A stretch of DNA of 64,000 nucleotides from Bacteroidales bacterium (GCA_016929525.1 JAFGIP010000045.1:9152-73151); one strand, 5' to 3'. Positions 2,581 through 41,143 are shown, numbered from the stretch's first letter. Notes: a model not told the origin generated them from the sequence alone. Numbers and translations: made by a program.

Positions 2581-4011
2581 TTACTTCAACCCGAATGCGT
2601 AATACTGAATCACCCCGTTGGGATATATTCCTTCAATATAAACTCCTCCATTAGTCCTTTTAATTGCGTTGCCCAGATCTTCAACGGAATAGATGGGTTT
2701 GTTATTGACTTGTGTAATTATAAAACCCTCTTTAACACCTTCTGCCCTTAGCTTTCCAGCCTTAAGTTCGACAACCTTTACACCGTTTTTAATACCCAGT
2801 TTTGTCTTCTCACTACCTGATACTTCTTCAAAGCGTGCACCAAGAATGCTGTCGAATGAGTCAGCTGATACGTAGCTCGTTTTCCCTTGCAGGTTACGTA
2901 AAGTCACTTCAAATTGTTTCATTTTACCATCTCTTTTTACAACAACGGTAACTATATCGTTAGGACGATAACGGCTGACCTGCTCCTGCAGTTCACCTGA
3001 ACTGTTGACATTAACTCCGTTTATCGATATAATCACATCTCCTTCTTTTATACCCGCTGCTTTTGCGGCACCGTCATCACGAACAGATGCAATATATACA
3101 CCTTCAATTTTATCAAGGTCCTTCTCTTTGGCAAGTTCAGCAGTAATATCCTGGATACTGACACCCAGAATTGCTCTCTGAACCACTCCAAATTCCTTCA
3201 GGTCCTTTACTACCTTAGCTACAATAGCGACCGGCACGGCAAAAGAAATACCTGCATATCCACCTGAAGGTGATATTATTGCGGTATTAATTCCCACAAG
3301 ATTTCCGTTTATATCAACCAATGCACCACCGCTGTTACCGCGATTTACAGCTGCATCAGTTTGTATAAACGATTCCATCCTGTACTGATCCTGGATGATA
3401 CCAATGTTTTTTGCCTTTGCACTTACTATGCCTGCAGTAACAGTCGACGTAAGATTGAACGGATTACCTACAGCCAGCACCCACTCACCAACCTGCAAAG
3501 AATCTGAATTTCCCCATGGAATATAATGCAAACCTTCAGCATCTACTTTTAATAATGCAAGATCGGTACTTGGATCGGTACCAATTACTTTTGCAGAGAA
3601 TTCACGCTTATCATTTAATGTCACATAAACTTTATCGCTTCCTTCCACAACATGATTATTGGTTACAATATATCCTTCGTCCGAGATAATAACTCCCGAA
3701 CCAAAACCCAGAACAGGTTGTGAATCGCGATAGCCATCACCATAAAAGAACTCCAGTATCGGATTATATGACTGTCTTGTTGACTGAGTCTTAACGTGGA
3801 CTACAGCCTCAACAGAATTTTGGGCTGCCCTTACAAAATTGAATGATGTAATATCTGTACCGGAAGGCATATTAGCAAAATTTATTGGCTGGGTAACGGT
3901 TGTGGTGACAACACGTTCCTCTCCGGGAAAAATCTTTGAGTATACAAATACAGCTATCAGCCCTCCTAATAGTGCGATTACAAATGTTCCTGCTGCTTTT
4001 TTCGTTTTCAT
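2581..4011 (-). CDS. htrA: HtrA/DegP/DegQ-family periplasmic serine protease with PDZ domains
   Basis: S1C catalytic contexts (TNNHVV, DLALLK, GNSGGALV) are followed by two PDZ-like segments. The longest ORF runs to 4071; the ATG at 4011 (MKTKKAAGTFVIALLGG) directly precedes the membrane anchor and is the more likely start. Confidence 0.9.
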   Translation of the reverse strand: MKTKKAAGTFVIALLGGLIAVFVYSKIFPGEERVVTTTVTQPINFANMPSGTDITSFNFVRAAQNSVEAVVHVKTQSTRQSYNPILEFFYGDGYRDSQPVLGFGSGVIISDEGYIVTNNHVVEGSDKVYVTLNDKREFSAKVIGTDPSTDLALLKVDAEGLHYIPWGNSDSLQVGEWVLAVGNPFNLTSTVTAGIVSAKAKNIGIIQDQYRMESFIQTDAAVNRGNSGGALVDINGNLVGINTAIISPSGGYAGISFAVPVAIVAKVVKDLKEFGVVQRAILGVSIQDITAELAKEKDLDKIEGVYIASVRDDGAAKAAGIKEGDVIISINGVNVNSSGELQEQVSRYRPNDIVTVVVKRDGKMKQFEVTLRNLQGKTSYVSADSFDSILGARFEEVSGSEKTKLGIKNGVKVVELKAGKLRAEGVKEGFIITQVNNKPIYSVEDLGNAIKRTNGGVYIEGIYPNGVIQYYAFGLK

Positions 4012-38162: not shown

Positions 38163-38336
38163 TGATTTTGAGGCAAATTATAATTTAATAAATCTAAAGT
38201 CAAGATATTTTTGACTAATTAAATTAATAAGATTTCATATTGCACGTATTTATTTATAAACAAGCCGGTTAACAACTATATGAGGATCACTAATGTGATT
38301 ATACAGATTTTTAGACGCAACCTGATATTACTTATT

Positions 38337-38504
38337 TCACAAATGATATCGCGTAACTCACAAATGATATCGCGTAATTCACAAATGATATTGCTTCTTT
38401 TACAAATGATATCGCTTCTTTCATAAGCGACATTGGAAATTTTATAAGTGACGCTGCATGTTCCAACAAGGATGTTGCGAATTTCAAGAATGATATCTGA
38501 CGAC
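38337..38504. repeat. Eight degenerate 21-bp tandem direct repeats
   Basis: The units in order are TCACAAATGATATCGCGTAAC, TCACAAATGATATCGCGTAAT, TCACAAATGATATTGCTTCTT, TTACAAATGATATCGCTTCTT, TCATAAGCGACATTGGAAATT, TTATAAGTGACGCTGCATGTT, CCAACAAGGATGTTGCGAATT and TCAAGAATGATATCTGACGAC. The phase is exactly 21 nt, and similarity decays towards the hairpin array. Confidence 0.85.
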
Positions 38505-38743
38505 CCAACTCGCGCGCTTTTATAAAGCGTGCGGTATCTATTATATACTTATTTAAAATGATCAGAACTATAAACCAACTCGCGCGCTTTTATAAAGCGT
38601 GCGGAATCTATTGTATAAGTAATAGTGTCAGTTGCCCTATACCCAACTCGCGCGCTTTTATAAAGCGTGCGAAATCTATTGTATAAGTACTATTGTCAGT
38701 TGCCCTATACCCAACCCACGCGCTTTTATAAAGCGTGCGGTAT
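38504..38743. repeat. Array of four ~68-bp units, each with a GC-rich hairpin (REP-like), abutting the 3' end of the RAYT-type gene
   Basis: The hairpin CGCGCGCTTTTATAAAGCGTGCG occurs at 38511-38533, 38581-38603 and 38649-38671, with the variant CACGCGC... at 38717-38739. Each is preceded by CCCAAC(T/C)C and followed by ATCTATT. Confidence 0.9.
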
Positions 38744-39292
38744 CTATTTAACGAGTACTATTGGCAGATGGCCAATACCGCCAGCATAGTTTATGGCAGA
38801 TGAATATTTGTAATCTTCTTCGTTTACTACCAATTCTTCGGTTACAGGATTTTCGTGGATGTAATTAAGTTTTTGTTCGAGAATTTCTCTTGTTGTCAAT
38901 TCAATAGGATGAAATCCGTCTTTCCATATCTTATAATTTTGACCTCTTTTAATCCGGTTAGCAGCAAAGGCAAATTTCTTTAACAACCATTCCCTTCTGC
39001 TTTCCGGATATTCGTTTATGGCTGTAATGAACTTCTTTGCTGTAAATTTCTTGAAGTCTCTGATTGTATTTGCCAATCTGAAGTTTTCACCTGAACTGAC
39101 GATTAGATGAATATGATTTGACATGATTACATAGGCATATATAACTAATTCTTTATTATGTATACAATGTTCCAATGATTCAATAATAATATGTTTATAA
39201 ACCGGTCTAGTAAAAAGATCTACACAGTTTATTGTAGTACACGTAATAAAATATAATCCTTCAGGGTTTCTGACTTTGTATTTTTCTGACAT
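38744..39292 (-). CDS. IS200-like HUH/Y1 transposase family protein, REP-associated tyrosine transposase (RAYT)-type
   Basis: HUH motif in SNHIHLIV and a catalytic-Tyr context LNYIHENPV near the C-terminus, with a ~180-aa size. The likely start is ATG at 39292 (MSEKYKVRNPEGLYFITCTT); the longest ORF extends to 39409. Hairpin repeats flank it. Confidence 0.8.
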   Translation of the reverse strand: MSEKYKVRNPEGLYFITCTTINCVDLFTRPVYKHIIIESLEHCIHNKELVIYAYVIMSNHIHLIVSSGENFRLANTIRDFKKFTAKKFITAINEYPESRREWLLKKFAFAANRIKRGQNYKIWKDGFHPIELTTREILEQKLNYIHENPVTEELVVNEEDYKYSSAINYAGGIGHLPIVLVK

Positions 39293-39455
39293 TAACGAAT
39301 TTAATCCTTGACAAATGTAAATGTTTCGGATTACAAATCCTATGTTATTGTTGTCAAATAACAGACTGGCACACTTAACATAAGCGCGCCAGTGGATAAA
39401 CTTCATCATTCAAACTTTGCCAAACCCCTGCCTGCATTTTTATAATAAGTTCCGT

Positions 39456-40640
39456 TTAAACAGAAGGTTTCCTGAACCTTATTCCAAAGTCCATATAGGT
39501 TAATGCCCGCCATACCCATTCTAAAGGTCCATAATAAAATTTCTTATTCCAGTAATCGCTGAAGACTGCCTGCAATGTGAAGATCATTAATCCGAGAATC
39601 AGGCTCCATGTCGATCCGAGGTATTTGTATAATGCAAACCCGTAACCGTAAAAAATAATAACACCAAGAACTGCCTGAAAGATATAGTTCGACAAGCTCA
39701 TTTTACCATAAGCGGCAAAAAGCCTGAAAATATAAGCATTTTGAAATTTCAGGTATATCAGAATAATCAATGTAGTTATAACAGATGTGATCGCGAGATT
39801 GGAATAAGAAGTCAAAATAGTACTTATTAGCGATAATTGCAGTCGGGTATATGAACTGTCTGTAAAGAACTTTCCTGAATAATAAAACACAAAAAACAGA
39901 ACAATACTAATTACCAACACTTTAAATAAAGATCGCTTATAATCTGATATCTTTTCAAAAACCCGGGTTCTTCCCAGGATCATACCCACTATAAAAAGTG
40001 TAATAAGCTGCAGGTATCTGCCGTTATAAATAGTCCATGCCCACACAGAGATCCTGCCTTTCCAGAAATTATATTTTACAACATCAACAAAATTCCCCGT
40101 TGCATACACATTGTTACCTTCTGCCCAGTACTGGGGAATTTTGTTTGCATATTCATATTCAGGTACACTGAATGACCTGATCAAATGATAAATCATTGGT
40201 ATTTGCAGAACAAGAAGAACGGAAATGCAAAGCAAAATTTTTGTATTCACCCTGTAGATGAATAATAACGGTATTGCCAGCAGCGCATATATGTGTAAAA
40301 TATCACCCCTGTATATTAATGAGTGAATAAACCCCATCAACAGCAATATTGTTAACCTCCAGATAAACCTTCCCATAAAATTGACCCCTTCGTTCTTTTT
40401 TCGATCCATCTGGATGAAAAAGCTAAATCCGAATAACAATGCGAAAATGGAATATGCTTTACCGCTTATTATAATGAAGATCCACTCCATAACCCTGTTG
40501 TCGGTTTCCTGCGAAAAGAGGAAGTTTATTTCGGGATTCATAAAGAAATCGAAGTGTTCTACGTAATGAATTAATACAATTAATAATAGTGCGAATCCGC
40601 GCAGGGTATCTACAATTAAAATTCTTCCGGTTTTATTCAT
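39456..40640 (-). CDS. DUF418 (YeiB-like) family integral membrane protein
   Basis: N-terminal RILIVDTLRGFALLLIVLIH, multiple TM helices, and the C-terminal family signature GPLEWVWRALTY. Confidence 0.8.
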   Translation of the reverse strand: MNKTGRILIVDTLRGFALLLIVLIHYVEHFDFFMNPEINFLFSQETDNRVMEWIFIIISGKAYSIFALLFGFSFFIQMDRKKNEGVNFMGRFIWRLTILLLMGFIHSLIYRGDILHIYALLAIPLLFIYRVNTKILLCISVLLVLQIPMIYHLIRSFSVPEYEYANKIPQYWAEGNNVYATGNFVDVVKYNFWKGRISVWAWTIYNGRYLQLITLFIVGMILGRTRVFEKISDYKRSLFKVLVISIVLFFVFYYSGKFFTDSSYTRLQLSLISTILTSYSNLAITSVITTLIILIYLKFQNAYIFRLFAAYGKMSLSNYIFQAVLGVIIFYGYGFALYKYLGSTWSLILGLMIFTLQAVFSDYWNKKFYYGPLEWVWRALTYMDFGIRFRKPSV

Positions 40641-40790
40641 TTCCTGAAACTGAGATTTGTGAATTGATTATCATGAGTCTTTTGGCGTTTAATTGAAGGT
40701 TGTTAAAATAATAACATCATAGAAATTATTAAAATATATAATTGCGAAAATCAGTTGTTTCAAAATAATATTTGTTCTGCAGGCGATCAC

Positions 40791-40920
40791 TTAACCCGCG
40801 CGCTTTTATAAAGCGTGCGGAATCTACTGTATAAGTACTAGTGTCAGTTGCCCTATACCCAACTCGCGCGCTTTTATAAAGCGTGCGGAATCTATTGTAT
40901 ACTTATTTATAATGACCAAA
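40791..40920. repeat. Two further REP-like hairpin units, same orientation as the 38504-38743 array
   Basis: The hairpin CGCGCGCTTTTATAAAGCGTGCG occurs at 40797-40819 and 40865-40887. The first unit's tail, CTGTATAAGTACTAGTGTCAGTTGCCCTATA, matches the tails at 38611-38640 and 38681-38709. Confidence 0.9.
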
Positions 40921-41143
40921 ATTGCAAATCCTTGCACATTGCTGTAATCAGTAAATTAGTCACGCATCATTCAACTTCGCTAGCACTTTCACTAAAAGTT
41001 ACAGTGCTCAAGGAAAGCTTCGTTGAACAAAGAATGCACGCCAGTGGGAATTTCGTCTTTACGGGATTAACATTTATTTACCTGTTAACAAAATTTAAAG
41101 GACAACGAACCCAACTATTTATTACCTTTGATGCACTTAAATT

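Follow-up and report, generated by a model that had tools for sequence, protein, structure and literature searches.

A REPtron of a Bacteroidales bacterium in which tandem hairpin units carry the 3' coding end of the RAYT gene

The locus described here is a known kind of element, a REPtron, and three of the five extra hairpin units near its RAYT gene contain a copy of the coding end of that gene joined to the hairpin. The available passages of Quentin 2018 (PMC6006769) and Bertels 2017 (PMC5581495) describe the flanks of such genes in general terms and mention neither units bearing a gene's 3' end nor re-copying of a gene end. Judged from sequence, units of this composition recur in about 1 locus in 6 among the subclass 2.6 relatives that we surveyed. 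The gene piece reveals the direction of descent, from the gene-proximal hairpin to the repeat, which bare hairpins cannot do. It also reveals the two boundaries of the copied segment, which would correspond to the predicted cut sites of the enzyme, and it serves as a relative clock, pointing to one old founder and then a recent spread. The window, that is, the whole stretch of DNA analysed (64,000 nt), comes from a draft assembly of 122 contigs and 4.06 Mb (G000:C83:9152-73151). Nearby T9SS sorting domains indicate an affiliation with the Bacteroidota.

Layout of the locus and class of the RAYT

The RAYT protein matches the NCBIfam model REP_Tyr_transpos (NF047646) over residues 5-164 with 99.2 bits against a cut-off of 80, and Pfam Y1_Tnp with 34.3 bits against a cut-off of 23. 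The HUH motif NHIH (in SNHIHLIV) and a single catalytic-Tyr motif, YIHENP (in LNYIHENP), can be read in the translation. For subclass 2.6, the available part of PMC6006769 (Table 1) lists NH[LIV]H, WQ, YIH[QN]NP, a length of about 179 aa and occurrence in Bacteroidetes. NHIH and the length of 182 aa fit this signature, the Tyr motif has E in place of Q/N, and WK is found instead of WQ. By motifs and length, not by tree, the RAYT fits TnpA-Y1 subclass 2.6, which is RAYT group 5, and hairpin-dependent cleavage and rejoining of single-stranded DNA is its putative activity. The score against the IS200 model (NF033573) is 23.2 bits, under the cut-off of 55. The genome holds two RAYT paralogues of 46-47% identity, and the gene itself is single-copy. 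An IS200/IS605 insertion sequence was rejected on these grounds, the IS200 score being under the cut-off and near-identical copies of the gene being absent. A PDB sequence search found no solved structure related to the RAYT, and an Rfam search gave no credible match.

On the + strand the order is eight 21-nt repeats, four hairpin units, the RAYT gene in antisense, a DUF418 gene and two further units (Table 1). The four units of the proximal array (38503-38778) stand head to tail and measure 68-70 nt each; TRF reports a 68-nt period with 4.0 copies and 82% matches. The distal pair, units 5 and 6 (40789-40931), lies on the far side of the DUF418 gene, with unit 5 about 150 nt upstream of the DUF418 start. 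A 22-nt palindrome (GCGCGCTTTTATAAAGCGTGCG) is present in each of the six units, and all six hairpin copies are on one strand in direct tandem orientation. A hairpin foot of 7-9 nt, GAGTTGG(GT), forms the gene-strand end of every unit and reads CCAACTC on the other strand. Folding of the downstream hairpin gives -11.4 kcal/mol on the + strand versus -9.5 on the other (a G-T pair versus an A-C mismatch). On the + strand the conserved CCAACTC occupies the position of GTAG in classical REPs. GT[AG]G is absent from the 5' foot, the gene strand having ATAG (including the stop codon) 4 nt from the stem and the other strand CCAACTC. The RAYT stop codon is TAG (38744-38746), and the cognate hairpin begins 4 nt past it.

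The diverged inverted hairpin upstream of the RAYT start aligns with counterparts in G005, G004 and G017 (CCACT.GCGCGCTT...AAG.GTGC). Because it aligns with orthologous upstream ends, and the layout is that of G005, the locus is, on this sequence evidence, a canonical REPtron, with the gene between an inverted upstream hairpin and a downstream cognate hairpin. The same upstream hairpin also scores as a terminator-like stem 3' of the DUF418 gene, and a small hairpin (GGATTACAAATCC, 39328-39340) lies between it and the RAYT start codon. The DUF418 orthologues in G022 and G017 (58-67% identity) have no RAYT within 1.5 kb, and a search of their contigs did not find the hairpin pattern. The eight phased 21-nt repeats (TGATATCGCGTAACTCACAAA, 38323-38497) adjoin unit 1 and are one of many 21-nt-period arrays in the genome; others are found at G000 C33:18376-18771, C45:22615-23028 and C120:6752-7261 and on C44, C87, C64 and C99. 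Several loci of the genome have paired arrays of a different 21-mer family (ATGGCATNCGAGTAA...).

Table 1. Positions of the features in the window
Feature	Position	Strand	Basis
Unit 1: tail B (43 nt, non-gene) + hairpin (core 38512-38533) + foot GAGTTGGGT; adjoins unique DNA	38503..38572	-	
Unit 2: tail A + hairpin (core 38582-38603) + foot	38573..38640	-	
Unit 3: tail A (pseudo 3' end, IGQLTIVLIQ and stop) + hairpin (core 38650-38671) + foot GAGTTGG	38641..38708	-	
Unit 4: real last 11 RAYT codons + stop (38744-38778), cognate hairpin (variant core 38718-38739), foot GGGTTGG	38709..38778	-	
Intact RAYT gene, 182 aa from MSEKYKV	38744..39292	-	ORF list, Pfam Y1_Tnp, NCBIfam REP_Tyr_transpos; orthologues share start Met
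Diverged inverted hairpin copy upstream of RAYT start, REPtron left end	39365..39393	+	Alignment with G005, G004, G017
DUF418/YeiB-like membrane protein gene between the two hairpin arrays	39456..40640	-	Pfam DUF418, 134 bits
Unit 5 (distal): tail A + hairpin (core 40798-40819) + foot variant GGGTTAAG	40789..40856	-	
Unit 6 (distal): tail B + hairpin (core 40866-40887); tail continues into unique DNA	40857..40931	-	

With up to 4 mismatches allowed, the hairpin core is found six times in the genome, each time inside a 2.4 kb stretch at this locus, and blastn-short found no further copies of either unit type in the genome. The earlier note had envisaged genome-wide hairpin copies whose tails could be compared; none was found outside the locus, the six being local only. 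There is no dispersed REP family in this genome and, because the hairpin is not dispersed, no sign of ongoing transposition. In 25 genomes from the genus, copies of the hairpin family number 0-6 in each. No inverted REP doublet (REPIN or BIME) was found, the six copies being all on the same strand.

Tails derived from the gene end and the direction of copying

The tail of unit 3 (38674-38710) and that of unit 4 (38742-38778) align without gaps at 29 of 37 positions, exactly as an earlier hand count had given. The translation agrees with the previous reading of the second segment as the antisense of ...GIGHLPIVLVK and the TAG stop. Unit 2 (tail 38606-38642) and the distal unit 5 (tail 40822-40858), whose tails had been placed in the same family, belong there: each of the two tails matches the gene tail at 27 of 37 positions, and the tails of units 2, 3 and 5 match one another at 35/37. 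AT-richness had been named as a source of similarity that would undo this reading. In an ungapped scan of the whole genome on both strands (8.1 million positions), the chance matches to the gene-end 37-mer were one of 25/37 and three of 24/37. Only the tail-A copies lay above 25/37 (27-29/37), at the register fixed by the hairpin. Since the null does not exceed 25/37 and the register is set by the hairpin, the similarity is not an effect of AT-richness. The distal 26 nt of the tails alone match at 19-21/26, the best chance matches being one of 19/26 and ten of 18/26. A local-alignment test between the gene end and the distal 24 nt of tail A gave P about 2e-4.

The earlier claim that each hairpin unit has a gene tail was too wide. 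Units 1 and 6 carry a different tail, tail B, and the repeated module of gene 3' end plus hairpin holds for units 2, 3 and 5. Tail B of unit 1 (38536-38572) and of unit 6 (40890-40926) agree at 30/37 and match the gene end at 12/37. Beyond the 14 hairpin-proximal nt (TATA[CT]AATAGAT[AT]C), tail B has no significant similarity to the gene end (P = 0.27 and 0.99). An origin of tail B as an older gene-end copy, which a MAFFT alignment had suggested, was ruled out by these values, and an origin as a copy of the upstream-end flank was ruled out as well (P = 0.66-0.90). Because tail-B units exist in the locus, the repeat does not require a tail derived from the gene. Whatever adjoined the source hairpin became the tail, with no special tie to the gene.

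The draft is metagenome-derived, and the units might in principle be a product of repeat mis-assembly or of chance similarity in AT-rich DNA. The assembly is in 122 contigs, and a second assembly leaves out units 1, 2 and most of unit 6. However, the matches at fixed register exceed the highest value of the genome null. Sequence differences at several positions also set the units apart, so collapse or expansion of identical copies is ruled out. Furthermore, an independent Logan contig (SRR13394437) reproduces 38642-40868 base for base. It stops within the repeated hairpin and foot at both ends, and it confirms units 3, 4 and 5 and the branching repeats. An artefact is therefore scarcely credible. 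For units 1, 2 and 6, number and order are as given by one short-read draft assembly. Apart from this one Logan contig, the metagenomes gave no same-species contigs, the best RAYT match being 67%. No orthologous empty site was found, divergence within the genus being too great: the DUF418 orthologues are without shared neighbours, and only the orf202-trkH synteny survives.

The closest orthologues of the RAYT are those of G013 (71-77% identity), G005 (70%), L069 (67%, the closest metagenome orthologue) and G017 (63%). All end in YKYSSA..Y[AT].G.G.L... and have a related hairpin a few nt after the stop (40 nt in G013). In G005 and G017, a single hairpin copy is located downstream of the gene, 4 nt past the stop. 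Because it is conserved in these single-hairpin orthologues, the juxtaposition of gene end and hairpin is ancestral and tail A is derived from it. Read in this way, the sequences give the direction as gene to repeat. In L069 (Ga0299912_10000264, 3001-3728) an insert of about 147 nt follows RAYT codon 19, with hairpin-like repeats (CTCAATCTCGATAGCGAAGTGTATCGAGATTG...) inside the coding region. The RAYT of G013 is split over two contigs (L065/L064, C463 and C686). Directly upstream of its start are tandem 33-nt bare hairpin units, in which GTAGATTT precedes the hairpin and TAAG follows it, oriented like the downstream hairpins.

The frame and the TAG stop are intact in the three tail-A copies (IGQLTIVLIQ, IGQLTLLLIQ and IGQLTLVLIQ, each followed by the stop). 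Tail A and the gene differ at 8 nucleotides, none of them at a second codon position; most of the changes are synonymous or conservative. G013 and L069 have the Q (CAA) and I of tail A as well as the P or the K of the gene; tail A retains the ancestral Q and I, the gene the ancestral P and K. Five of the 8 differences could be polarised by outgroups, and three of these lie on the gene lineage and two on that of the copies. The word "decayed", used previously for the copies, suits the two changes on the copy lineage, but frame and stop are kept and three changes fall on the gene lineage. Tail A is therefore both a decayed copy and, to the same degree, a fossil of an older gene end. Alternative C-terminus cassettes were considered and are unsupported; frame and stop are kept, but 3-4 substitutions are too few for a selection test.

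The tail-A units differ among themselves at 4-6 of 68 positions; compared with unit 4, the gene's own, the differences number 12-14 of 68. This low divergence between copies, compared with the high divergence from the gene, indicates that a single founder duplication is old and that its spread, which included the distal site, is recent. Tail B of unit 6 continues into unique DNA, and that of unit 1 begins at the foot of unit 2; because of these boundaries, unit 6 is likely the source and unit 1 the copy. The arrays have probably exchanged units both ways, tail A going to the distal array and tail B back to the proximal one. New units are always found directly after the foot of an existing hairpin. 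The earlier note had seen here the right end of an IS200-like element, serially re-copied and with one copy moved. The tandem re-copying and the copy past the DUF418 gene stand; the element is a RAYT gene in a REPtron and not of the IS200 type.

Gene-end copies in related RAYT loci

The survey covered 80 metagenome loci and 20 genome loci encoding RAYT relatives, dereplicated to 78 for a 36-nt test, in which a second copy nearby had to match at 25/36 or more. The last 36 nt of the gene were duplicated nearby in 15 of the 78 loci. Segments 50 and 100 nt further in were duplicated in 9/78 and 5/78, a mid-gene segment in 3/78 and the first 36 nt in 4/78 (Fisher test for the last 36 nt, P = 0.005 versus mid-gene and P = 0.013 versus the gene start). 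The 36 nt after the stop were repeated in 38/78 loci. By blastn, direct hairpin copies reached 15-125 nt into the gene in 13 of 82 loci. Copies extended by at least 388 nt, which are second, near-full gene copies, were found in 3/82, and none ended between 125 and 388 nt.

Six tandem cases with unrelated hairpins are independent of one another, namely the study locus, L077/L078, L145, L148, L088 and L108. On the far side the break comes 5-9 nt after the last hairpin foot, on the genic side it varies between 27 and 87 nt, and the junctions share 0-3 nt of microhomology; no common cleavage dinucleotide was found at the junctions across these loci. The boundaries were set by manual inspection, because modules with several hairpins, and X-drop termination in diverged tails, blurred the automated extension statistics. 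L077/L078 is nearly a twin of the study locus, with three 87-nt units, each ending the gene piece in ...INIITEI and stop and followed by a double hairpin. An exact-pattern scan for the L077-type double hairpin (strict, one match) located a Mariniphaga MAG, which was then searched itself. Two of its three orphan double hairpins on other contigs have decayed copies of the gene's last 12 codons. The earlier suggestion that such units are a trace of the origin of REP-like arrays gains weight from the 13/82 loci and from these orphans; on the other side, the study genome has no genome-wide family.

Gene-end modules of another kind are present in two relatives. In G005, six near-identical modules of about 150 nt of gene end plus hairpin are elements with an internal deletion in which the upstream end is retained. 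In G004:C171 (L025, 29119-29415), inverted hairpins 270 nt apart enclose the first ~20 and the last ~24 RAYT codons. The modules of G005 and G004 arose by another route, internal deletion with both ends kept. They lend some support to the idea that the tails of the study locus are relics of a whole gene, such that the REPtron was duplicated or its RAYT replaced, deletions left 37 nt and the hairpin, and this stump was amplified. The near-full second gene copies in 3/82 loci and the mostly synonymous or conservative differences between tail A and the gene are also consistent with this. However, tail A directly adjoins the preceding hairpin foot, with no upstream end and no 5' gene trace between them, and the tail-B units are not gene-derived. 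Two steps are needed compared with one for direct duplication. Moreover, the fragments cluster at 15-125 nt, with a gap to 388 nt, and are not spread over the 540-nt gene. We consider an origin from whole-gene relics quite improbable.

The modules of G005 form two clusters (G005:C1, 540.5-543.5 kb and 3628.8-3631.4 kb), with RAYT copies 97% identical over 728 nt. One of these RAYT copies has an in-frame TGA, the clusters have one versus two internally deleted derivatives of ~300 nt, and in one of them a second, different RAYT paralogue is located between the modules. In G008, five modules (C2, 3053105, 3053693, 3055436, 4085454 and 6011915; L026, L035, L037, L039) consist of an upstream-end hairpin and ~45-130 nt of gene-side flank (GGGATTACAAATCCC...). 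The only RAYT match in G008 is partial (residues 58-165 of 182) and lies elsewhere on the chromosome, and the modules look like orphaned left ends. At L123 (~1000-1130) and L115 (~3550-3600), the loop of the post-stop hairpin is interrupted by another hairpin, and an orphan copy at the locus is uninterrupted. This points to nested insertion into the hairpin loop.

Candidate mechanism and relation to known elements

On single-stranded circles, TnpA-REP of E. coli nicks 5' or 3' of REP at a dinucleotide, over a range of more than 400 nt (PMC3333891, PMC8266576). Its cleavage requires an intact REP, and strand transfer has been shown. In E. coli REPtrons, a single BIME lies on the 5' flank and a varying number on the 3' flank. 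In the amplification model described in the same papers, the 3'-OH left by a first nick is extended, the new strand is nicked next to REP and the ends are rejoined, and the product is an added tandem unit made up of REP and the DNA between the two nicks. With one nick placed within the final 40 nt of the RAYT's own gene, this model would give the anatomy seen at the study locus. On balance we lean towards the view that the extra units were made by RAYT-mediated copy-and-rejoin, following the BIME amplification model of Ton-Hoang 2012. RAYT would bind the hairpin on single-stranded DNA, nick once at a fixed site by the foot and nick again at a loosely specified site tens of nt away, here inside its own coding region. 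Copy synthesis and rejoining would then add a tandem unit (Ton-Hoang 2012, Fig. 7B), and excised or copied units might integrate beside an existing hairpin (Fig. 7A). Such integration would lead to the mixed order of units and to the exchange between the arrays. The sequences show the anatomy, the homology, the gene-to-tail direction, the recent amplification of one founder copy and the recurrence in the family; we infer the involvement of RAYT, the positions of the nicks, the active strand and the order of events. Members of subclass 2.6 are without the GTAG tag, and this counts against the reading.

At the founder junction, the foot (...GGGTTG/GGT) is joined to the gene (...GCTGGC/GGTATT), and 3 nt, GGT, are shared. 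The junctions, with 0-3 nt shared and no common dinucleotide, are equally expected from slippage or from illegitimate joining, and errors of host replication could also have produced the array. In that case the hairpin would stall synthesis, and the nascent strand, re-primed further upstream through 1-3 nt of microhomology, would yield the first 68-nt tandem duplication. Unequal crossing-over among the units would then alter their number, and a rare template switch or recombination would place units beyond the DUF418 gene. The GGT at the founder junction, the microhomology of 0-3 nt at the five other tandem junctions and the lack of a consistent cleavage motif agree with this, as does a breakpoint near the hairpin foot, which stalling predicts. 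Slippage and unequal exchange explain the tandem founder equally well, but they fit poorly with same-boundary copies 2.2 kb away, with the tail-B unit copied back and with the orphans on other contigs of the Mariniphaga MAG. The breakpoint follows a foot that is conserved among orthologous hairpins (GAGT[TG]G), which argues for a functional element end. Furthermore, none of the other 21 tandem arrays of period 40-200 in the genome, many of which are 21-nt-phased, has a unit of hairpin plus adjacent sequence. Replication error as the source of the whole array is thus rather unlikely in our judgement.

RAYT-mediated copy-and-rejoin could also be a habit of the family. It is conceivable, and we suggest it tentatively, that subclass 2.6 RAYTs routinely place the second nick in their own coding region, so that REP-like offspring are born with a piece of the gene. 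If this were true, gene-tail units would map the cleavage geometry, the fixed cut lying 5-9 nt past the hairpin and the loose one at a distance of 15-125 nt, and they would be the clearest sequence record so far of the birth of a REP from a gene-proximal hairpin.

As in the E. coli REPtron (PMC3333891, PMC8266576), one Y1/HUH gene resides at the locus between hairpins of its own; the 5' side has a lone structure, and a variable array in tandem occupies the 3' side. In contrast to the E. coli element, the protein fits subclass 2.6 (E. coli, 2.2), and the locus has no GTAG tag and no C/T junction motif. Its hairpins are six in the same direction, not head-to-head BIMEs, its copies are six and not hundreds, and its units contain RAYT coding sequence. 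With the subclass 2.6 or RAYT group 5 REPtrons, as far as they are covered in the available passages of PMC6006769 and PMC5581495, it shares the phylum, the length (182 versus ~179 aa), NH[LIV]H and YIH.NP. The same passages report that "atypical secondary structures" without GT[AG]G, with a few copies at other places, flank these genes, and such structures flank the gene here as well.

The IS200/IS605 elements, as presented for the IS608 model in the available parts of PMC8266576 and PMC6006769, also combine a Y1 HUH enzyme with subterminal hairpins. In that model, a short sequence 5' of the stem directs cleavage, which falls at a set distance from the foot of the hairpin. Counterparts of their miniature derivatives, internally deleted with both ends kept, are present in the relatives G005 and G004. 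In contrast to IS200/IS605, the flanking hairpins of the study locus are inverted as in REPtrons, and there is no sign of movement of the gene. REPINs (PMC3116915) are likewise short non-autonomous repeats, thought to be descendants of RAYT flanks copied by RAYT. REPINs consist of two REPs in inverted orientation and are scattered, in tens to hundreds of copies, whereas the units here are single hairpins in direct tandem, local, and with a coding-derived tail.

For annotation, short ORF-like stubs after RAYT genes are to be treated as repeat units and not as genes. The gene end of the Mariniphaga MAG (L163, G041:C390) reads ...DYVGTK, stop, MINIITEI, stop, so that an in-frame TGA precedes the normal stop by nine codons, and this TGA is shared with the orphan tails of the metagenome loci L078 and L079.
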